A stretch of DNA of 64,000 nt from Clostridia bacterium. Lineage in GTDB: Bacteria > Bacillota > Clostridia > Monoglobales > Firm-18. The number at the start of each line of letters is the position of its first letter. Within the stretch, counting starts at the first letter, position 1. The stretch lies in the NCBI GenBank assembly GCA_045660545.1, contig JAZREA010000021.1, positions 2,511 to 66,510 of the forward strand. Reading direction: 5' to 3'. The position numbers and the translations under genes were made by a program. Under the pieces are notes generated by a model. That model made no database searches. It worked only from the letters and a program-made list of their open reading frames with translations, and was not told the origin of the DNA. This document shows positions 2,838 through 57,505 of the stretch, piece after piece.

Positions 2838-3882
2838 TTTCTGCCATCCTGTTTCGGATATATTCCAACGACATAAGCTTTTCCACAACCGCATCAACGT
2901 CCAAAAGCTCTGTGTTGTTTGAATTAAACTCTGTAAGAGGGTTTCTGTCTACGTCGCCATCCTTAAAATACTTGTCGTAATTAAGGTCGCGCTTGTCCGC
3001 GGGCACACGGTAAAAATCGCCCATATCTATTGCGTTGGCACATTCCTCGTTTGTAAGCAAGGTCTCGTACATCTTCTCGCCGTGTCTTATGCCTATTACC
3101 CTGACCTTCGTCTCATCATCCTTGTCAAACAACTTCTTAACCGCAAGAGCAAGTGTTTCGATAGTGCAGGCAGGTGCCTTTTGTACCATTATGTCACCGT
3201 TTTCCGCATTTTCAAAGGCAAACAGAACAAGCTCAACAGCCTCTTCCAATGACATGATAAATCTTGTCATAGAAGGTTCTGTAACGGTAATGTCTTCTCC
3301 CTTTTTGATTTGGTCAATCCAAAGCGGAATAACCGAACCTCTTGAACACATAACGTTTCCGTACCTTGTGCCGCATATAAGGGTTGCGCCATCGCTTATT
3401 GTCCTGGACTTTGCGACAAACACCTTCTCCATCATAGCCTTTGACGTACCCATAGCATTAACGGGATATGCCGCCTTGTCGGTAGAAAGGCAAATTACCT
3501 TCTTAACTCCCGCCTCTATCGCAGCAGTAAGCACGTTTTCCGTGCCTAAAACGTTTGTTTTTACAGCTTCTATCGGGAAAAATTCGCACGACGGAACCTG
3601 TTTTAGCGCGGCCGCATGGAATATGTAGTCAACACCGTGCATCGCATTTTTAACACTTTGCAAATCGCGAACGTCACCGATATAAAACTTTATCTTCCGG
3701 CTAAGCTCCGGGAATTTCGCCTGATATTCATGTCTCATATCGTCCTGCTTTTTTTCATCTCGCGAAAAAATCCTGATTTCGCCAATATCTGTTGACAAAA
3801 ATCTGTTTAATACAGCGTTTCCGAAGGAACCCGTTCCTCCTGTGATTAACAAAGTTTTATTCTCGAACAAGCTCATATCCAA
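2830..3882 (-). CDS. fnlA: UDP-N-acetylglucosamine 4,6-dehydratase/5-epimerase (FnlA/CapE-type)
   Basis: 350 aa. N-terminus KTLLITGGTGSFGNAVLNRF and a short CapD-like SDR body. Context with fnlB- and fnlC-type genes. Confidence 0.85.
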   Translation of the reverse strand: MDMSLFENKTLLITGGTGSFGNAVLNRFLSTDIGEIRIFSRDEKKQDDMRHEYQAKFPELSRKIKFYIGDVRDLQSVKNAMHGVDYIFHAAALKQVPSCEFFPIEAVKTNVLGTENVLTAAIEAGVKKVICLSTDKAAYPVNAMGTSKAMMEKVFVAKSRTISDGATLICGTRYGNVMCSRGSVIPLWIDQIKKGEDITVTEPSMTRFIMSLEEAVELVLFAFENAENGDIMVQKAPACTIETLALAVKKLFDKDDETKVRVIGIRHGEKMYETLLTNEECANAIDMGDFYRVPADKRDLNYDKYFKDGDVDRNPLTEFNSNNTELLDVDAVVEKLMSLEYIRNRMAENE

Positions 3883-3917
3883 CCTCCAAGTATATATTTT
3901 ATATAAATAATATTATG

Positions 3918-5384
3918 CTACTTATCATTTAACCTTTTCCACAAACGAAGTATATGTTTTAAGAACGCCAAAACATAACAAACGCCCCATACTATACCTA
4001 ACATAACTACTGTTAAAATACTTTTTGTATCGACACTGACACAAAGCACCTTCATAAGCAAACACATAACGCCACCCGACAAAGCCACAGCGACCGTAGG
4101 CAATGCGAACTGCCGATAAGGTATTATATTCTTCAAACTAACTCCCAACAGTCGGGACGAGCGCACAACCTGCAAAACAGATATAGCAAGAATACTAAGT
4201 ATAGTAGCCAAAGCAGGCCCCGCAAAGCCGATTGTTTTATAAAACACAAAGCTTAGCGCAACATTTACAGCAAGGCAAATTATCGAATTATACAGTATCT
4301 CGTTTGTCCTTCCGTGAGCATTAAGCATCATTCCCCAGTAAGTTATTCTGAGCAAAAGCGTAAAAGAATAAATCCTGAAAATACCAACCCCCGCAAGATA
4401 AGTATCAGAATACAAAAGTGTTATAATCTGCGGCGCGAACACAACAGACGCGCCCACGCAAAAGGCAAGTATAATGTAGTTTAAAGACATAATGTCTTTC
4501 CATTTTTCAACGGCAACGCCCGCCTTTTTCTCCTTCACCATAAGAACAATCTGCGGAAGGAAAACGGCAGTGAAAGACGTGGATATTAAAGAAAAAGGAA
4601 GCTCTTTTCCTGCGTTTGCGTATATTGCAACCGACGACTCATCCATAAAGTATCCTATTATCAGCTTGTCTAAATCCAGACTGATTGTAGAAATCGCAGT
4701 AGACAGTCCAAGCGGTATTGTATAAACCAGAACGGCTTTTATATCCTGCCAATTTAGTCTTATATTGATTTTTCTTTCCGAAATTCTTAACGCTTCAAAA
4801 TATACTCCAAGCGCAAAAACGCACTCTATCACAACATACAAAAACAGATAAAAAGCAAAAGACCCCTCGGTAAAGCTCAAAAGCAACGATATCACAACAA
4901 GGCAAAGGCCGTTTAATATACAATAAACAACTTCCCTGTTAACATAGCCTTCTGCGACGAGCATATTGCTTCTGCTGCTTATAATCAGCTTGGTCCACGG
5001 TATAATAACCAAAAAATAAGAGTACAAAACAAGCGCAGGGTTTTTATAATAACCGGCAATCTGTCTGTTTAGCAAGGCCATACAAACCATAATCACCAAA
5101 GAAATTATCGTGACAACAGTAAAGTAAAAGCCCAAAAAATTGCCTTTTTCCTCTTTTGTTTTCCTCTGCGGCAAAAAGTAGTTAAGAGCATTGGGTAAGC
5201 CGAGAGAAAAAATCGACACTCCCAAAGACGACACTGTCAAAAGCTCTGAATATGTCCCGTATTCATTAAGCGTAAGCGCCCTTGACAAAATCATTGCCGT
5301 AACCGTTGAAAGCAACAACGTAAGCACCTTGCTGAAAACCAGAACAAACGCCTTAGTACCGGATTTATGTCCAACACTACTCAT
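3918..5384 (-). CDS. wzx: Wzx-type polysaccharide flippase (MOP superfamily)
   Basis: Highly hydrophobic multi-TM ORF. Start moved to ATG 5384 (MSSVGHKSG), which overlaps the stop of the upstream glycosyltransferase. Position within the glycan locus. Confidence 0.7.
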   Translation of the reverse strand: MSSVGHKSGTKAFVLVFSKVLTLLLSTVTAMILSRALTLNEYGTYSELLTVSSLGVSIFSLGLPNALNYFLPQRKTKEEKGNFLGFYFTVVTIISLVIMVCMALLNRQIAGYYKNPALVLYSYFLVIIPWTKLIISSRSNMLVAEGYVNREVVYCILNGLCLVVISLLLSFTEGSFAFYLFLYVVIECVFALGVYFEALRISERKINIRLNWQDIKAVLVYTIPLGLSTAISTISLDLDKLIIGYFMDESSVAIYANAGKELPFSLISTSFTAVFLPQIVLMVKEKKAGVAVEKWKDIMSLNYIILAFCVGASVVFAPQIITLLYSDTYLAGVGIFRIYSFTLLLRITYWGMMLNAHGRTNEILYNSIICLAVNVALSFVFYKTIGFAGPALATILSILAISVLQVVRSSRLLGVSLKNIIPYRQFALPTVAVALSGGVMCLLMKVLCVSVDTKSILTVVMLGIVWGVCYVLAFLKHILRLWKRLNDK

Positions 5385-10068: not shown

Positions 10069-11247
10069 TTACTTTTTTGCCGGGCTGTATATATCCATAT
10101 ACTTTACCAAAGTTTCCTTTTTATCTAAAAGCAGATTTTCCTTTACTTTACTGCTTCCTTCAACAATCTTTTGGCACAATGCAGACAAATCGCCCTGTGC
10201 GACAATTGAATTTTCGTCTGCGCTTTCCACACTTCCGCCTGTTTTATATGTAATAACGGGCGTACCGCAGGCCTGTGCTTCCAGGTTGGTAGTAGGGTAG
10301 TTATCCTCATAAGTCAGGTTGACAAAAACATCTGCGGTAGTATATAACCCTGCAAGCTCACCAGTGTTGTTTGTGCCTGTTAATCCGATTATTGATTCGG
10401 GAAGTTCGTGTTTTTGTTTTTTCGTAAGTCCTACCAGCACAACCTGATAAGATTCATCAAGCATTTCCGACAAGCGTATAAAATCTAAAAGTCCTTTTCT
10501 TTCATTCCAGGCACTTGCAACGCCCAGCACGACTTTTTTGTCCTGCAAGCCATATTTTTCACGAAAATCACTGTCCGTCGGTTTAAAAACATCCAAATCC
10601 ACGCCGTTTGGAATCACCTCAACCGGATATGTACCGAGGAACGATTCTTTAACCAAATCCGCAAGCCACCTTGACGGTGTAACTATCTTCATATCAGCAA
10701 CAGAAGTAAAAAGCTCCTTTTTAATATTATAATTACGTTTTGAAGCATCAATAAAGTAGCTTGATGGATATGAGGTTTTCTGCGGACAATGCCCGCAAGC
10801 TTTATCCTTCCATCTTTCACATTTTGCATAACAAAAATGTGCACAATGTCCTGTAAACGGCCAGCAGTCATGCAATGTCCATATAACAGGCTTTTGGAAT
10901 TTGCTTAAATATTCAAACAAAACTTCTATATTTATATAATACCCGTGTATGTTATGCAAATGGACAACGTCGGGATTATACTCTTTTACCCATTCTATAA
11001 ATTCTTCGGTCGCTCTTTTGCTGCCAAAACCCATACCGTCAAAAAGCCTTGTTTTGAGCGCATGGTATTTTACATCCGTCTCATTTCCTATGCGCACCGC
11101 ATATTTTTCATATCCCTGCGGACAGTTGTGCCTGCCGTATGCAATTTTGCACTCATGTCCGTTATTATCTAATATCCCTGCGATATCTGTGCATATTCTG
11201 CCTGTACTGCGGATACCGCATACGGAATTAATCATCAATATTTTCAT
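10069..11247 (-). CDS. glycosyltransferase family 4-like; first gene of the minus-strand glycan operon
   Basis: 392 aa. N-terminus MKILMINSVCGIRSTGRI and C-terminal EDNYPTTNLEAQACGTPVITYKTGGSVE. Confidence 0.75.
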   Translation of the reverse strand: MKILMINSVCGIRSTGRICTDIAGILDNNGHECKIAYGRHNCPQGYEKYAVRIGNETDVKYHALKTRLFDGMGFGSKRATEEFIEWVKEYNPDVVHLHNIHGYYINIEVLFEYLSKFQKPVIWTLHDCWPFTGHCAHFCYAKCERWKDKACGHCPQKTSYPSSYFIDASKRNYNIKKELFTSVADMKIVTPSRWLADLVKESFLGTYPVEVIPNGVDLDVFKPTDSDFREKYGLQDKKVVLGVASAWNERKGLLDFIRLSEMLDESYQVVLVGLTKKQKHELPESIIGLTGTNNTGELAGLYTTADVFVNLTYEDNYPTTNLEAQACGTPVITYKTGGSVESADENSIVAQGDLSALCQKIVEGSSKVKENLLLDKKETLVKYMDIYSPAKK

Positions 11248-36624: not shown

Positions 36625-37956
36625 ATGAGCATAAAAAACAAAATTAACGAAAAGCACATACTGAGCATTCTGGCGATATTCGCAACCGCTGTATCGGCAT
36701 TCGCAATATACCAGTACAACGTCAGCAACAAGTATAAAGAAAAGGTCGAAAACACATACCAAAAGTCCTTTACAGAGCTTGTAGACTACGTGGGCAACAT
36801 AAACGTTATTTTAAACAAAGCTCTTGTAACCAACACAGCCGCAAAGCTCGTGGAATTTTCGGAAGATTTGTGGTCGGAAACTGCGCTTGCAAAATCCGCT
36901 CTCGGCCAATTACCAACCAGCAACACCGAGCTTTACAAAACCTCCAACTTTATAACACAAGTGGGCGACTACGTGCGCTACTTAACGCGCAAGCTTGTCG
37001 GCGGAGGGACTATTACCACGGAGGACAAGGAACAAATTTCCTCCCTTGTAGATTACTCAAACTCCCTTAACAAAAGCCTGAAAAACATGGAAACCGACTT
37101 TATAAACGGCGACATGTTACTGTCGGAAGAAAAGACCAAAACAGTGTTTTCCAAAAGCCGCGTCGCAAGCATTAACGAAAGCTTAAAATCCGTGGAAAAA
37201 AGCTTTGAAAGCTACCCGACGCTGATTTACGACGGGCCGTTTTCCGAGCATATTTTAAACAAAACTCCGGAAATTTTAAAGCAAAAAGAGGTCACAAAGG
37301 ACGAGGCAAAAAAGGTTGCAGAAAAGTTTTCGAACATGCCTCTTTCATATATGACTGACACCAAGGGAAACATACCTTCGTATATATTTTGCGACGACGA
37401 TAACAAAATCTGTGTAGAAGTTTCCAAAAACGGCGGCAAGGTCGTTATGATGACCAACAGCGAAGAGATTAAAAACCCGCAAATAGAAATAAACGAAGCA
37501 TCAGAATACGCAAAGTCGTTTTTATCCTCACAAGATTACAAGGATATGAAGCAAACAGGCTTTGAAACAGACGGAAACACAGTCGACTTTGCCTTTGCCC
37601 ACACATTGGGCGAATACACAATTTACTCCGACCTTGTTAAAGTAAAGGTGTCACTTCACGACGGCATGATATGCGGCTTTGAAGCGAACGGATTTTTGTG
37701 CAACAACGTAGTCCGCACCGCGCCCGAGCCAAAGTACACAAAGGAAGAAATCAGCAAAAATGTAAGCAATATGGCAAAAATAGAGAAAATAAACCTCGCC
37801 CTAATCCCCAAAGACTACGGCAAAGAGGTGTGGTGCTACGAAATTAAGGCATCAAGTAAAGGAAAAATTTTCCTAATCTATATAAACACACAGACAATGG
37901 CCGAAGAAGAAATAATGATGATGGTACAAGACCCAAGTTTAAGTATGACGATTTAG
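36625..37956 (+). CDS. ypeB: germination protein YpeB-like (N-terminal TM, C-terminal PepSY-like domains)
   Basis: 443 aa with an N-terminal anchor. The TLIYDGPFSEH motif is typical of YpeB. Confidence 0.7.
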   Translation: MSIKNKINEKHILSILAIFATAVSAFAIYQYNVSNKYKEKVENTYQKSFTELVDYVGNINVILNKALVTNTAAKLVEFSEDLWSETALAKSALGQLPTSNTELYKTSNFITQVGDYVRYLTRKLVGGGTITTEDKEQISSLVDYSNSLNKSLKNMETDFINGDMLLSEEKTKTVFSKSRVASINESLKSVEKSFESYPTLIYDGPFSEHILNKTPEILKQKEVTKDEAKKVAEKFSNMPLSYMTDTKGNIPSYIFCDDDNKICVEVSKNGGKVVMMTNSEEIKNPQIEINEASEYAKSFLSSQDYKDMKQTGFETDGNTVDFAFAHTLGEYTIYSDLVKVKVSLHDGMICGFEANGFLCNNVVRTAPEPKYTKEEISKNVSNMAKIEKINLALIPKDYGKEVWCYEIKASSKGKIFLIYINTQTMAEEEIMMMVQDPSLSMTI

Positions 37957-38054
37957 TGATTTTTTCTACTACTTCGTTTTAATACCTTAATATACTTCGT
38001 ACTTTTACAAATAATATTCTTGCAACAAAATATTAATGTAAAAGGAGCGTGTTT

Positions 38055-38222
38055 ATGATGAGCAAATCCAAAATGTCTTCGGCTTTAAAGACCGAAATCG
38101 CAAAAGAGCTTGGTGTATATGATATAGTGAAGAACGAAGGTTGGGGAGCTGTGTCCTCACGCGACTGCGGCAACATCGTAACAAAGGCAATCGAAATAGC
38201 GGAAAAGTCAGTACAGAAATAA
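38055..38222 (+). CDS. small acid-soluble spore protein, alpha/beta type
   Basis: Not in the ORF track (55 aa). Sequence: MMSKSKMSSALKTEIAKELGVYDIVKNEGWGAVSSRDCGNIVTKAIEIAEKSVQK. The two conserved SASP blocks (K.EIA.ELGV and SR..G..V...I) are present. AAAGGAG RBS. Confidence 0.8.
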   Translation: MMSKSKMSSALKTEIAKELGVYDIVKNEGWGAVSSRDCGNIVTKAIEIAEKSVQK

Positions 38223-38540
38223 CAAAAGGGTCATCTGTAAGGCCACCACCAGACAAGGAAGTAATGGTTTTGAAGCCTGATTTTCCGTTTATGCTTCGTA
38301 AAAAATTCCCGAAATACGCCAGTATTACGGAATTTTTATTACTTGCCTAATTCGAAAAATCAGATATTCAAAACTGCAAGGCATCCTAAAACCAAAATTT
38401 TTCGATGAAGTTCAAGGCGAAAGCAGCCCATAATCCTGACGGATATGGGCTGTTTTTAACGCTGAAATTCGCAAAAAAGATGGTTTTTAGGACAATACTT
38501 CCTTATCTGGCGGTGGCCAAAGATGACCCTTTATTTACAT
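38216..38540. repeat. inverted-repeat-bounded non-coding module A (MITE-like, inverton or structured RNA candidate)
   Basis: IR-L at 38225-38263 versus the reverse complement of IR-R at 38496-38532: 33 identical positions, 2 substitutions and one 2-nt indel. The interior of about 230 nt contains three further hairpins and no credible ORF. Confidence 0.6.
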
Positions 38541-38544
38541 ATTA

Positions 38545-40596
38545 TTAGTTCAAAAGATAGTTGTTTTGGTATATTTTGCCCAGCGTTTTTTCCATAATTT
38601 TCTTGTCTTTGTCCGCTATTTTGCCGATATTATCGAGCACAAACTGCGCCGCCTCGCCCGCCTTTGCAAGAACGTCTGTGTCCTCGTAAATATTCGCCAC
38701 CTTAAACTCGGGCAGACCGTGCTGACGAGTACCAAAAAACTCGCCGGGGCCTCTTAGCTGCAAATCCTTTTCAGAAATTACAAAGCCGTCGTTGGTCTTT
38801 GTCATAATGTCCATGCGCTCTTTTGCGATTCCTTCTTTCGCCTCACAAAACATTATGCAGTACGACTGGTGTTCCCCTCTGCCTACTCTTCCTCTTAGCT
38901 GATGCAGCTGCGAAAGGCCGAAACGCTCTGCGTTTTCGATAACCATAGTGTTGGCGTTTGGAACATTAACCCCTACCTCAATAACGGTGGTGCTGACTAA
39001 AACGTCTACCTCCCCAAGGCAAAAGCGCTCCATTACCTCTTCCTTTTCCTTGGCGGAGAGCTTGCCGTAAACGACGCCGACGTTATGACCTTTAAACACG
39101 GTGTCCTCGAGCCTTTTAGCGTAGTCTGTAACCGCCTTTAACTGTTCCTCTACCTCCGAGGTCTCTACCATGGGGCAGACTATATACACCTGGCGGCCTG
39201 CGTCGATTTGTTTTAGCATAAAATTGTTAATTCTCTGCCTCATCCCTTCGTCGACGGCGTATGTATCGACCTTCTTCCTTCCGGGCGGAAGCTGCCTGAT
39301 AGCAGAAATGTCAAGGTCTCCATACAATATAAGCGCCAGTGTCCTGGGTATAGGTGTCGCAGTCATAACCAGAGTGTGCGGGTTTTTACCCTTTTCGTAA
39401 AGCTCGCTACGCTGCTTTACGCCAAAGCGGTGCTGCTCGTCCGTAACAACGAGCGCAAGGTTTTTAAACTCTACTTCCTTTTGTATAACAGCGTGGGTGC
39501 CTATTACAAGGTCGACCTCGCCGTTTTTTATCTTTTCGTAGGCCTCGCGCTTTTGCTTTGCGGTCATACTACCTTTTAACAAAATTATGCGCACTCCCAA
39601 GGGCGAAAGCATCCCAAAAAGCGACTCCATATGCTGATTGGCAAGTATCTCTGTCGGCGCCATCATTGCCGCCTGGTATCCGCCCTTTATGGCAACGTAA
39701 ATTGCCGCAGCGGCAACAACCGTCTTTCCGCAGCCGACGTCGCCCTGCACAAGCCTGTTCATAGGCAGGTCCTTGCCCATATCAACACATATTTCTTCTA
39801 TAACCTTCCTTTGGTCGTCAGTAAGTTCAAACGGGAGCGACGAAACAAGCTCTGTGCTCTTTCCGTCGTCCTTTATCGCTACGCCTTTTACAACCTTGCG
39901 CCTCTTTCTGATCGCGCGCATCGCAAGTTGGAGGTAAAAAAGCTCCTCAAAGGCGAGCCTCCTCTTTGCGTAAGCAAACTTTTGTTCATCCTGCGGGAAG
40001 TGGATGTTACAAACTGCGTAGTCTATACCACAAAGCGTGTATTTTTCGCGGACAAAGTCGGGCAAAGTCTCCTCTAATTCACCAACCGCAGCCATACACT
40101 CGCTTACGGTTGACTGCATAATCTTTTGCGTAAGCCCCAAGGTAAGAGGATAGACTGGGACAATCCTGTTGGCAAACTTGTCCTCGCCGACCTTTTCGTA
40201 TATTGGGTTAGACATTTCAAGCTTGTAATTTTTAACCGTTATTCTTCCGTAGAAATAATATTCCCCCGAAACGTCAAAGTTTTTTGCTATCCAGTCCTGG
40301 TTAAACCACGTTATGTCCACAACGCCTGTGCCGTCAGAAACACGCAGTTTTTGCAAAGAAAGCCCACGCCGAACACGGTTGTTCTTCACAACCGTGACAG
40401 CGTGAGCTCTAATCAGAACGGTCTGACCGTCCATAGCTTCACTTATTCTTTTAACCTTAGACCTGTCTTCGTAAGCTCTGGGGTAAAAGCCAAGCATATC
40501 TTCGACGGTAAAAATGCCCATTTTGTTAAAAAGCTTTTGCCTTGCAGGGCCGATTGACTTAATCGTATTAATTCCGTCGTTTATCATAATTCTCAC
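38545..40596 (-). CDS. recG: ATP-dependent DNA helicase RecG
   Basis: 683 aa with a wedge domain plus SF2 motifs: GDVGCGKT, DEQHRFG, TATPIPRT and QLHQLRGRVGRG. Confidence 0.93.
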   Translation of the reverse strand: MRIMINDGINTIKSIGPARQKLFNKMGIFTVEDMLGFYPRAYEDRSKVKRISEAMDGQTVLIRAHAVTVVKNNRVRRGLSLQKLRVSDGTGVVDITWFNQDWIAKNFDVSGEYYFYGRITVKNYKLEMSNPIYEKVGEDKFANRIVPVYPLTLGLTQKIMQSTVSECMAAVGELEETLPDFVREKYTLCGIDYAVCNIHFPQDEQKFAYAKRRLAFEELFYLQLAMRAIRKRRKVVKGVAIKDDGKSTELVSSLPFELTDDQRKVIEEICVDMGKDLPMNRLVQGDVGCGKTVVAAAAIYVAIKGGYQAAMMAPTEILANQHMESLFGMLSPLGVRIILLKGSMTAKQKREAYEKIKNGEVDLVIGTHAVIQKEVEFKNLALVVTDEQHRFGVKQRSELYEKGKNPHTLVMTATPIPRTLALILYGDLDISAIRQLPPGRKKVDTYAVDEGMRQRINNFMLKQIDAGRQVYIVCPMVETSEVEEQLKAVTDYAKRLEDTVFKGHNVGVVYGKLSAKEKEEVMERFCLGEVDVLVSTTVIEVGVNVPNANTMVIENAERFGLSQLHQLRGRVGRGEHQSYCIMFCEAKEGIAKERMDIMTKTNDGFVISEKDLQLRGPGEFFGTRQHGLPEFKVANIYEDTDVLAKAGEAAQFVLDNIGKIADKDKKIMEKTLGKIYQNNYLLN

Positions 40597-56693: not shown

Positions 56694-56722
56694 TTGACAA
56701 AAATACCCTGATGTGGTATTAT
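56694..56722 (+). promoter_or_regulatory. sigma-A-type promoter for rplJL (TTGACA-17 nt-TGgTATTAT)
   Basis: TTGACA at 56694-56699. TATTAT at 56717-56722 with an upstream TG. Confidence 0.6.
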
Positions 56723-56724
56723 AA

Positions 56725-56830
56725 TAAAGGTTTCCATAGACTCAGGCACAAAAATAAGTCCTGCCGAGGAATATAAATCATTGATTTTTCAAGGTTCTTC
56801 GTATGTCTATGGACGAAGAACCTTTTTTAT
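56725..56830 (+). ncRNA. ribosomal protein L10 leader (attenuator) candidate
   Basis: Terminator hairpin AAGGTTCTTCGT...ACGAAGAACCTT plus T-run at 56791-56830. TCCATAGAC (56733-56741) is complementary to GTCTATGGA (56805-56813), which lies in the loop and 3' arm of that terminator hairpin, giving an antiterminator alternative. Confidence 0.6.
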
Positions 56831-56854
56831 ACTTACTTGAAAGGAGGAACAAAA

Positions 56855-57505
56855 ATGCCAAGCGCAAAAATTTTGGAAAGCAAAAAACAGGTTGTTGCAA
56901 GTTTGACCGAAGAGCTCAAAAGTGCTGCGGCCGGTATTATTGTTGACTACCGCGGTCTTTCTGTTGAAGAGGACACAGAACTCAGAAGGAAATTCCGTGA
57001 GGCAGGTGTTAAATACACTGTTGTTAAAAACTCACTTTTGGGTTTCGCTGCTAAAGAAGTTGGTCTTGAAGGTCTTGATGAAGTTCTTCACGGTCCCACA
57101 GCTTTGGCTTACCATACAGACGATATGGTAGCTCCTGCAAAGATATTCTCTGACTTTGCTAAGACTCACGAGGTTATTTCCCTAAAGTCCGGTTTCTTAG
57201 AGGGAAGCGTTATGACACTTGACGAGGTTAAGAAATTAGCCGCTACACCGTCTAAGGAAGTTCTTATCGCAAAGATGATGGGAAGCTTGCAGTCCCCAAT
57301 ATCAGCACTCGCAAGATTGCTTGATACTATCGCAACTGGTGGCGTAGAAATCGCTGACCTTATTGCAAAGAAAAACGGCGAAGCTGTAGAAGCTGCTCCG
57401 GCTGCTGAGGAAGCTCCTGTTGAAGAAGCTCCTGCTGCTGAAGAAGCTCCTGCTGCTGAAGAGGCTCCCGCTGCTGAAGAAGCTCCGGCTGCTGACGCTG
57501 AATAA
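56855..57505 (+). CDS. rplJ: 50S ribosomal protein L10 with an Ala/Glu/Pro repeat tail
   Basis: Start at ATG 56855 behind AAGGAGG. The L10 body covers residues 1 to about 170, followed by (EEAPAA)-type repeats. Confidence 0.92.
   Translation: MPSAKILESKKQVVASLTEELKSAAAGIIVDYRGLSVEEDTELRRKFREAGVKYTVVKNSLLGFAAKEVGLEGLDEVLHGPTALAYHTDDMVAPAKIFSDFAKTHEVISLKSGFLEGSVMTLDEVKKLAATPSKEVLIAKMMGSLQSPISALARLLDTIATGGVEIADLIAKKNGEAVEAAPAAEEAPVEEAPAAEEAPAAEEAPAAEEAPAADAE
57381..57505 (+). repeat. 18-nt periodic coding repeat (GCTGCTGAAGAAGCTCCT-like) encoding the L10 tail
   Basis: EAVEAAPAAEEAPVEEAPAAEEAPAAEEAPAAEEAPAADAE. Confidence 0.9.

Follow-up and report, generated by a model that had tools for sequence, protein, structure and literature searches.

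A probable miniature transposable element in the terminator loop between a spore-protein gene and recG in gut Clostridia

Host genes, shared terminator and limits of the element

The stretch of DNA analysed here (64 kb, hereafter the window) carries a gene for an alpha/beta-type small acid-soluble spore protein (SASP) and, convergent with it, recG, with GerA/GerAC/YpeB/SASP/RecG/FakA/Asp23 as syntenic neighbours. Pfam PF00269 (SASP) was found in the SASP orthologues of three related loci (L001, L002 and L055), and P0001, a protein 100% identical to the RecG of the window, has the RecG Pfam domains. The features between and including the two genes are as follows.

38055–38222, + strand: SASP gene (ORF; outside the element)
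38224–38240, no strand assigned: host bidirectional intrinsic terminator, left half (varies among element copies)
38241–38518, + strand: probable mobile element, MITE-like, 278 bp, non-coding (boundaries GGCCACC...GGTGGCC from the copy alignment)
38241–38266, + strand: left terminal inverted repeat GGCCACCACCAGACAAGGAAGTAATG (95% mean column identity across copies)
38300–38337, no strand assigned: left-arm hairpin AAAAAATTCCCG...CGGAATTTTT, with A-run and T-run flanks
38367–38391, no strand assigned: nearly invariant centre TTCAAAACTGCAAGGCATCCTAAAA, at the three-way junction
38420–38457, no strand assigned: right-arm hairpin AAAGCAGCCCATAATCC TGAC GGATATGGGCTGTTTTT, the second terminator-like hairpin
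38493–38518, − strand: right terminal inverted repeat, reverse complement GGCCACCGCCAGATAAGGAAGTATTG (96% conserved across copies)
38519–38536, no strand assigned: host terminator, right half (from the alignment of copies and joined-flank folding)
38545–40587, − strand: recG, ATP-dependent DNA helicase (ORF; convergent with the SASP gene; outside the element)

The inverted repeat described in the original prediction is present where it had been placed between the two genes, including a 2-nt indel, which separates inner arms (38241–38266 and 38493–38518; 26 nt, 88% complementary) from outer arms (38220–38236 and 38521–38537; 17 nt, 88% complementary). The stop codons of SASP (TAA, 38220–38222) and recG (38545–38547) lie near the arms, in agreement with that prediction. 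The arms had been treated as a single unit of 37–39 nt, which did not hold, as the copies described below have only GGCCACC...GGTGGCC (38241–38518) in common, and their alignment identifies the outer AAAAGGGTCATCT / AGATGACCCTTT as host terminator sequence specific to the locus. On sequence comparison, the repeat is composite, its outer 9–13 nt (GGGTCATCT / AGATGACCC plus A- and T-tracts) being host terminator halves and its inner 26 nt element ends, and it appears 37–39 nt long because the terminator halves flank the element. The predicted module (38216–38540) is thus real but extends about 25 nt too far at either end. The window copy matches nhmmer model positions 1–278 with 293 bits.

The left host half consists of an A-tract (38224–38227), the stem GGGTCATCT (38228–38236) and the loop part GTAA (38237–38240), and the right half of the loop part AA (38519–38520), the stem AGATGACCC (38521–38529) and the T-tract TTTATTT (38530–38536). 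When joined, the two halves form an A-tract/stem/loop/stem/T-tract hairpin of −19.4 kcal/mol. The AA dinucleotides abutting the element (38239–38240 and 38519–38520) may be the two copies of a 2-bp target duplication.

Copies in related genomes and their target sites

Further copies, a search for which had been proposed with the original prediction, do exist and are dispersed at 38 loci in 14 related genomes, all Clostridia/Oscillospiraceae gut MAGs, with a maximum of 12 loci in one genome (CAYMHB01). These loci, which do not include that of the window, were among 44 stretches in GTDB species representatives that match a 21-mer from the repeat arm exactly; the other six, five of them in unrelated phyla, show no likeness past the 21-mer and were taken as chance. 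The similarity between copies extends over the full 278 nt, beyond the arms alone (BLAST and nhmmer), with the window element 94% identical to L014 and 72–82% identical to six other full copies. Five copies have internal deletions while retaining both ends (L015, L036, L009, L035 and L006), four are one-ended truncations that continue into ordinary host genes (L011, L020, L026 and L038) and one is a 29-nt remnant (L032). Contig ends cut the element at at least 16 loci, and the repeat accounts for many contig breaks in the carrier MAGs. The window itself holds one copy, the multi-copy status being seen in the genomes of relatives; a weak nhmmer match at 10535–10609, inside a coding region, was dismissed as chance. 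The family was not found in plasmid, phage, viral-contig or JGI metagenome collections, and four JGI metagenome matches to the repeat-arm pattern have no similarity to the element outside the pattern.

The copies adjoin unrelated genes, and the family lies at gene 3' ends. The nearest ORFs mostly point inward (on the left at 21/27 sides, on the right at 18/23), as a rule from a distance of 10–45 nt, and the element occurs in both orientations relative to its neighbours (where these are in tandem, four copies lie with transcription and three against). In 10 of the 14 copies with both flanks available, the joined flanks fold to ≤ −16 kcal/mol, against an average of −4.6 kcal/mol (sd 3.0) for mismatched flank pairs, and the flanking terminator stems have a different sequence at every locus. 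All 10 hairpin-flanked copies are inserted within 2 nt of the palindrome axis, splitting the loop, for example, 3|3, 6|6, 8|10 or 4|2, and both stem halves are kept in 10/14 copies. The flanking hairpin is absent in the other four; one of them, L041, is the sole copy located at the foot of a hairpin that has stayed intact, with 3 nt between them. The dinucleotides on the two sides of the element agree (AA/AA or TT/TT) in 8/14 copies as read, or in 10/14 if the extra or changed G at the left junctions of L023 and L036 belongs to the element; these junctions suggest a 2-bp target duplication, with a high chance level of identity because the loops are A/T-rich. Tn3-type (5-bp duplication) and IS630-type (TA) targets were rejected on the junction sequences.

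A check for empty sites, also proposed with the original prediction, found plain terminators without the element at the orthologous recG spacer in three relatives, namely L001 (RecG 76% identical; spacer of 52 nt), L055 and L059. Elsewhere, L027 is filled and L022 empty, the flanking protein being 78% identical; all of these empty/filled comparisons are between species, at 68–78% protein identity. A search of JGI metagenomes for an empty site with identical flanking sequence gave no matches, and when the L015 flanking protein was used to look for filled and empty alleles of the same species, only an identical contig and relatives of ≤73% identity came up. The L058 contig stops 44 nt beyond recG, and its tail is not the element.

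Coding content and internal fold

Only two ORFs touch the element, one of 69 aa, which begins inside the SASP gene, and one of 47 aa; no ORF of more than 47 codons was found within it, and reading frames are broken by single-base indels between copies. The segment folds strongly on both strands (38216–38545; + strand −133.1 kcal/mol, z = −12.7; − strand −143.4 kcal/mol, z = −13.7), with 0/100 shuffles as stable in either case. The earlier view that there is more structure here than termination needs was borne out, and the excess is that of the inserted element. In the consensus obtained with RNAalifold from eight full copies, the interior is modelled as a conserved three-way junction, in which pairing holds for 96.2% of cells and 20 pairs are compensated, compared with 38–51% and 1–7 compensated pairs in slid controls; the alignment with partial copies yielded no structure.

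Each arm of the element contains one A-tract/stem/T-tract hairpin. The left-arm hairpin (−7 to −20 kcal/mol) was found in all 10 copies that are full or nearly so, with compensatory changes in helices 4 and 5; it looks like a bidirectional terminator and, from its fold, is predicted to stop SASP transcription. The central TTCAAAACTGCAAGGCATCCTAAAA supplies one strand to the base helix of each arm (the 3' strand on the left and the 5' strand on the right) and includes a 3-bp hairpin. The base helices are 96–99% conserved, and pairs in this part were counted for helices 2, 6 and 7. The right-arm hairpin folds in all copies (−14 to −27 kcal/mol), with 9/17 pairs of helix 9 compensated. It corresponds to the plus-strand terminator originally proposed at 38418–38458; the hairpin is present (38420–38457) and predicted to be a terminator, and across copies it has A6/T6 flanks in most cases. 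A simple terminator scan made no call on the internal hairpins, because of their internal mismatches. The remaining pairings noted previously are also present, i.e., the 13-bp hairpin 38420–38432 / 38444–38456, TCGAAAAAT / ATTTTTCGA, and TCCTAAAACCA against TGGTTTTTAGGA.

Transposition model, alternatives and known systems

Taken together, the data make it very likely that 38241–38518 is a non-autonomous transposable element (MITE) inserted at the palindrome centre of the SASP/recG terminator loop. A MITE was among the options originally listed, and it is supported by the dispersed copies in relatives together with the plain terminators at the orthologous spacer. The element has the small size (278 bp, below ~500 bp), absence of coding capacity, terminal inverted repeats, non-orthologous copies and presence/absence at orthologous sites of a MITE, while no autonomous IS sharing its ends was found among the loci and collections searched. 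As a previously undescribed MITE family directed at palindrome centres (terminator loops), it is selfish DNA of a familiar kind, and neither a new RNA gene nor a switch.

As for the mobilising enzyme, neither the 38 loci nor the collections searched (plasmid, phage, viral and metagenome) yielded an autonomous element with the same ends, and the DNA inward of the repeat arm is MITE sequence at 38/38 loci. No ORF recurs between loci except orthologous host genes, and a tblastn search with E. coli InsI for an IS30-type transposase gave no match in ~0.4 Mb of locus sequence. In the mechanism we propose, a DDE-type transposase supplied in trans would recognise the conserved ends (~34 nt) and join them to a structurally distinctive target, such as a palindrome centre or the tip of an extruded hairpin, with a probable stagger of 2 bp. 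Termination for the flanking genes would then pass to the two terminator-like hairpins that the element contains, and insertions may cost little and persist because these hairpins would replace termination. If they do terminate transcription, the selfish element pays for its site by restoring the function that it interrupted.

A structure-guided and hitherto undescribed mechanism appears unlikely, though conceivable, as the specific basis of this mobility. The element would home to the apex of terminator hairpins of any sequence, leave both stem halves in place and make up for the lost termination through its two bidirectional terminators, using an enzyme that does not come from a conventional parent IS; this enzyme may be a single-copy host-resident transposase (a RAYT-like Y1 protein) or a distant DDE enzyme.

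We consider it decidedly improbable that the element is REPIN-like and moved by a RAYT-type (Y1/HUH) single-strand transposase, in which case it would be placed, as one long single-stranded DNA hairpin, into exposed hairpin loops by a domesticated IS200-like tyrosine transposase. RAYT-like genes do occur in the clade, with one of 167–173 aa lying 9 nt downstream of recG in L052 and L053/L054 (Pfam Y1_Tnp above cut-off) and a homologue in L023 lying 26 nt from a full element copy, a hairpin-loop target could suit a single-strand-specific enzyme, and the loci and collections searched yielded no DDE partner. However, the top NCBIfam match of these genes, REP-associated tyrosine transposase, reaches 65–71 bits against a cut-off of 80, and the genes carry or adjoin a different repeat, consisting of GTAG/CTAC-type GC-rich palindromes, which lie inside the L052/L053 ORFs and flank the L023 gene as an array (L023:714–955). 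The element ends in GGCCACC..., without a GTAG head, and its 278-nt length and 26-bp, near-perfect, 95% conserved ends are typical of DDE binding sites and not of two 20–40-nt REP units. Neither a RAYT homologue nor GTAG palindromes were found in the 64-kb window.

That the segment is a structured non-coding RNA or 3'-UTR RNA module, with the copies being members of a gene family and not insertions, is very improbable. The conserved pairing with compensatory changes on which the original suggestion of a large structured RNA can draw is real, comprising the strong fold (z ~ −13), the three-way junction with its 20 compensated pairs, the nearly invariant central motif and an excess of G:T over A:C pairs on the + strand of the right arm, albeit on the strand used for the structure prediction. 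The RNA-gene part of that suggestion is weakened by several observations. No match was found among 4227 Rfam families in 37000–40000, even at E ≤ 1, the L10 leader being the sole match at gathering score in the window, and a consensus promoter scan gave weak matches only in the region and none inside the element. Across copies, neither strand is consistently more stable, and among tandem neighbours both orientations relative to transcription occur (4:3). Many truncated or deleted copies retain the ends and not the core, assemblies break at copies as they do at repeats, and the flanking helix is the host terminator, unrelated in sequence from site to site. Hairpins acting at the DNA level or as terminators account equally well for the covariation. 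Scans for tRNA and tmRNA found none in the region, and a group II intron was rejected, the Rfam intron match being absent.

An elaborate convergent terminator region, locally evolved and non-mobile, is extremely improbable; it would fit a segment that fills the entire spacer between convergent genes and holds terminator-like hairpins, but the same 278 nt recur at up to 94% identity beside unrelated genes in other genomes, and the 52-nt spacer of relative L001 is a plain terminator. The originally listed inverton, flipped by a site-specific recombinase via the 37–39-nt arms, is barely credible: long inverted repeats do bracket a non-coding segment between two genes, but the arms are composite (host terminator plus element ends), the 278-bp element recurs at 38 unrelated loci, the syntenic gene table shows no recombinase among the neighbouring genes, and the segment contains no promoter-like site, which would have nothing to drive because the flanking genes converge.

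Having weighed these alternatives, we compared the MITE reading with described systems. Bacterial MITEs (for example Correia, ERIC, RUP, BOX and Chunjie; PMC10969869) are likewise small and non-coding, with terminal inverted repeats and dispersed intergenic copies, show size variants arising by internal deletion and fold into long hairpins. The element differs from them in showing no sequence similarity to any family tested, in targeting the centre of terminator hairpins instead of a short sequence such as TA, and in its interior, where a conserved three-way junction carries two terminator-like hairpins. Its 26-bp ends, possible 2-bp duplication and central palindrome insertion are, by analogy, most like IS30-type targeting. 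IS30 attacks a nearly palindromic hot spot at its middle 2 bp, with a stagger of 2 bp, and its insertions end up between 2-bp direct repeats (PMC9333248); the element shares ends of ~26 bp and a position within 2 nt of the palindrome axis, with AA/AA or TT/TT junctions in most copies. However, the hot spots of IS30 conform to a sequence consensus, whereas no common sequence is shared by the targets of the element, and the ends of the element show no sequence similarity to those of E. coli IS30.

The sequence-independent choice of hairpins is, again by analogy, comparable to that of IS1272 (IS1182 family), a less close likeness than that to IS30. IS1272 and TnSha1 use hairpin targets, mostly terminators, in Firmicutes, without sequence consensus and in either orientation; IS1272, whose ends measure 16 bp and whose transposase has 548 aa, makes its cut at the stem or foot, and the stem-loop is deleted ('replaced') with no duplication (PMC4923244, PMC5678879). 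The element also has hairpin targets, with flanking stems that differ at every locus, but it keeps both stem halves and sits in the loop. IS1630, of the IS30 family, targets inverted repeats of variable sequence (Calcutt et al. 1999, as cited in PMC3317919), and IS1630 elements are flanked by 16–26-bp duplicated junction sequences (PMC3317919), whereas each arm of the inverted repeat targeted by the element occurs once. Insertion into extragenic palindromes, with the palindrome halves flanking the element, is shared with several REP-associated IS elements, although their target is a specific repeated REP and that of the element consists of unique, unrelated terminators. IS1397 and ISKpn1 are IS elements with REP palindromes as their insertion sites. 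ISPa11, ISPpu9/10, ISPsy8 and others also insert there (PMC1525189). SPRITE, a rho-independent-terminator-like repeat of pneumococci with one 18-bp duplex, a U-rich tract and AAAA/TTTT ends only, is strongly enriched near the 3' ends of convergent genes and was proposed to be a terminator (PMC3049150). As judged by its description, it is similarly a small terminator-like repeat near gene 3' ends, while the element is set apart by its 26-bp ends, its pair of bidirectional hairpins and the defined structure of its target.

The family provides a clean natural set of insertions at the centres of terminator palindromes that are unrelated in sequence and keep both halves, which complements IS1272 (stem-loop replacement) and IS1630 (duplicated junctions at inverted-repeat targets) and could aid the study of how transposases read DNA structure. 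For annotation, it indicates that structured spacers of ~300 bp in poorly sampled gut Clostridia should not be annotated as RNA genes or switches.

A MITE family dispersed among Clostridia

The loop of the terminator shared by the SASP and recG genes contains, at positions 38241-38518 of the window, an inserted copy belonging to a new MITE family. The spacer between the two genes is entirely occupied by the structured segment to which this copy belongs.

Features of the SASP-recG region
38055-38222, alpha/beta-type SASP gene, convergent with recG, one border of the segment
38220-38236 and 38521-38537, outer arms, 17 nt, 88%
38241-38266 and 38493-38518, inner arms, 26 nt, 88%
38300-38337, left-arm hairpin, between an A-run and a T-run, in all copies
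38420-38457, right-arm hairpin, between an A-run and a T-run, in all copies
38545-40587, minus strand, recG, other border of the segment

An inverted-repeat search of the window recovered, within 38216-38545, the inner hairpins of the original prediction and its 37-39-nt arms, the latter as the inner and outer arms with a 2-nt indel. The segment folds to -133 kcal/mol on the plus strand (shuffles approximately -66, z = -12.7) and to -143 kcal/mol on the minus strand (shuffles approximately -72, z = -13.7), with a G+C content of 37.6% against 43.7% for the whole window. No Rfam family matched the segment, even at E ≤ 1, a tRNA/tmRNA scan of it found none, and no further element copy was found in the 64-kb window. 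The sole Rfam family at or above gathering score in the window is a ribosomal protein L10 leader (56716-56837, plus strand, RF00557, 48 bits); approximately 550 nt downstream of it, at 57384-57495, units of 15-33 nt (GCTCCGGCTGCTGAAGAA) are imperfectly repeated in tandem.

Scanning one genome per GTDB species for an exact 21-mer of the repeat arm, GGCCACCNCCAGANAAGGAAG, returned 44 stretches, of which 38 were kept as element loci and six set aside as chance matches, their similarity ending with the 21-mer and five of them lying in unrelated phyla. The 38 loci are spread over 14 Clostridia/Oscillospiraceae MAGs, Congzhengia and Candidatus Aphodoplasma among them, with 12 loci in MAG CAYMHB01. 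BLAST and profile searches showed that the whole element, beyond the arm, recurs at these loci: one copy (L014) is 94% identical to the window element over 278 nt, and six further full-length copies share 72-82% identity with it. At no fewer than 16 loci a contig end interrupts the element, as expected of repeats disrupting short-read assemblies. Shortened copies also occur.

Copies with internal deletions and a remnant
L015, 201 nt, both ends kept
L036, 161 nt, both ends kept
L009, 110 nt, both ends kept
L035 and L006, approximately 225 nt each, both ends kept
L032:7650-7678, 29-nt remnant (GGCCACCACCAGATAAGGAAGTGGTGGCC), left arm joined to the final 7 nt of the right arm

The remnant, placed in the terminator loop of an AraC-type gene, has the appearance of an excision scar or of a copy shortened by internal deletion. 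Four copies truncated at one end (L011, L020, L026 and L038) pass directly into host genes at the break.

Insertion sites in terminator palindromes

Multiple alignment of copies with their flanks placed the limits of the common sequence exactly at GGCCACC and GGTGGCC, corresponding to 38241-38518, while the outer arm portions (AAAAGGGTCATCT ... AGATGACCCTTT) occur in no other copy; the long inverted repeat first described as one unit is real, but only its inner portion belongs to the element. At most other loci the flanks again form an inverted repeat, differing in sequence each time, with an A-run before and a T-run after, as in L025 (AAAAAAGCTGTTCTTT / element / AAAGAACAGCTTTTT). Folding of the left flank (22 nt) joined to the right flank (22 nt) gave -16 to -23 kcal/mol in 10 of 14 copies, compared with a mean of -4.6 (s.d. 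3.0) for mismatched flank pairs. These hairpin-forming flanks are, as predicted by folding, ordinary bidirectional intrinsic terminators with the element in the loop. The loops are split 3/3, 3/3, 6/6, 3/4, 2/3, 4/2, 3/1, 5/3, 8/10 and 4/0, so that the insertion point lies at most 2 nt from the palindrome axis in all 10. No flanking hairpin was found by this folding in L009, L035 or L036. The L041 copy lies 3 nt beside, rather than within, an intact hairpin, which argues against the insertion itself producing the flanking inverted repeat. In a rough ORF survey, gene ends face the element on the left in 21 of 27 cases and on the right in 18 of 23, typically 10-45 nt away. Immediately outside the element, the left and right dinucleotides agree (AA/AA or TT/TT) in 8 of 14 copies on a direct reading, or in 10 if a G that is additional or altered at the left junctions of L023 and L036 is counted as element, which suggests a 2-bp target duplication, with the proviso that chance identity is common in A/T-rich loops. 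Element copies just downstream of genes 53% identical in two different MAGs (L006:2567-2790 and L034:2-53) suggest repeated independent insertions at equivalent terminators.

Orthologous sites were compared between species in every case; a same-species empty site was searched for and not found. Among relatives on record, the closest (L001, RecG 76% identical) shares the FakA-RecG/SASP/YpeB neighbourhood of the window and has a 52-nt SASP-recG spacer with one plain terminator (AAAAATGGGCTGTAAAA...TTTTACAGCCCATTTTT). The corresponding spacer in L055 (68%) is 121 nt long and also holds a plain terminator, and L059 (68%) has one in the recG-ypeB interval. A further pair of orthologous sites agrees with this: in L027 the element begins 19 nt past the stop codon of a gene whose orthologue in L022 (78% identical) has AAAAAAACAGGCGTTTTGCCTGTTTTTTT at the equivalent place. 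The empty SASP-recG sites that the original prediction proposed as a sign of a MITE thus exist in other species and, with the copies dispersed over 14 MAGs, bear out its MITE option. In another relative (L002, RecG 72% identical), the spacer holds a plain terminator and a different 318-nt structured sequence (5039-5356, z = -5.8), unrelated to the element, which may be another repeat family at the equivalent spot.

Conserved fold of the element

Eight full copies share a consensus fold with the form of a three-way junction.

Helices of the consensus fold
Terminal helix, 26 bp
Base helices, 8 bp each, closing the left arm and the right arm
Small hairpin, 3 bp, between the left and right arms

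In a 20-sequence alignment, standard pairs fill 96.2% of cells and both partners vary in 20 pairs, compared with 38-51% and 1-7 pairs when partners were slid by 1-3 columns; no shuffle matched the observed value for four of five measures, and 2 of 500 did for the fifth. Conservation is highest at the ends (95-96%) and in the base helices and central motif TTCAAAACTGC-NNN-GCATCCTAAAA (96-99%), and is 82-84% in the arms. The arm hairpins, where the majority of compensatory changes are located, fold to -7 to -27 kcal/mol across copies and resemble bidirectional intrinsic terminators. No consistent advantage of one strand in folding was seen across copies, orientation relative to transcription between tandem neighbours is mixed (four copies with, three against), and no promoter-like sites were found within the element. 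A new RNA gene and an inverton were both rejected in favour of a MITE copy.

Mobilisation and target choice

This repeat is non-coding, its inverted ends are conserved, and it has inserted centrally in many unrelated terminator palindromes. A transposase acting in trans would mobilise it, presumably binding the conserved terminal ~34 nt and favouring a structural target feature, which would be the centre of the palindrome or the tip of an extruded hairpin. The two hairpins of the element would halt transcription from both sides, so that the broken terminator would be functionally replaced and the insertion tolerated. No transposase was found adjoining any copy, no IS30 homologue was found at the examined loci, and no ORF recurs among them except orthologous host genes; the family was not found in plasmid, phage, viral or JGI metagenome collections.

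MITEs and palindrome-directed insertion are already known, and target choice by structure has precedents in the literature. REP palindromes are targets of several insertion sequences (PMC1525189). IS30, whose attack on a nearly palindromic hot spot is directed at the middle 2 bp with a 2-bp stagger and leaves 2-bp repeats (PMC9333248), is the best match in its ends of ~26 bp, central insertion and possible 2-bp repeat. IS1272 (IS1182 family) targets terminator hairpins with no sequence consensus, deleting the stem-loop without duplication (PMC4923244, PMC5678879), whereas both stem halves are retained at the element. Two properties of the family stand out: insertion at the centre of terminator loops irrespective of their sequence, with both halves retained, and the pair of terminator-like hairpins built into the element.

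Movement by a RAYT (REP-associated tyrosine transposase)/REPIN system was also considered. RAYT-like Y1 (IS200-like) transposase genes of 167-173 aa lie in relatives L052 (3558-4079), L053 and L054 (both 3549-4052), 9 nt downstream of recG and co-directional with it, where the SASP gene stands in the window; their products match Pfam Y1_Tnp above the cut-off, with REP-associated tyrosine transposase as top NCBIfam match, below the cut-off. A full element copy is moreover contained in the terminator of a homologue in L023.

Organisation of L023
1-368, partial RAYT-like gene
394-672, full element in the terminator hairpin of this gene
714-955, REP-like array

However, the RAYT-like genes go with another repeat, GC-rich palindromes headed by GTAG/CTAC, found inside the ORFs and in the L023 array; heads of this type are lacking in the element, and no RAYT gene or GTAG palindrome was found in the window. 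We therefore consider it improbable that this system moves the element. Two distinct repeat families are thus adjacent in L023, whose array comprises five GTAG/CTAC-type palindromes, and the L052, L053 and L054 ORFs each carry two inverted ones (e.g. GTAGGGGCGATTCACGAATCGCCC ... GGGCGATTCTTGAATCGCCCCTAC). The genes and palindromes of L052, L053 and L054 look like a REP/RAYT system in Clostridia.
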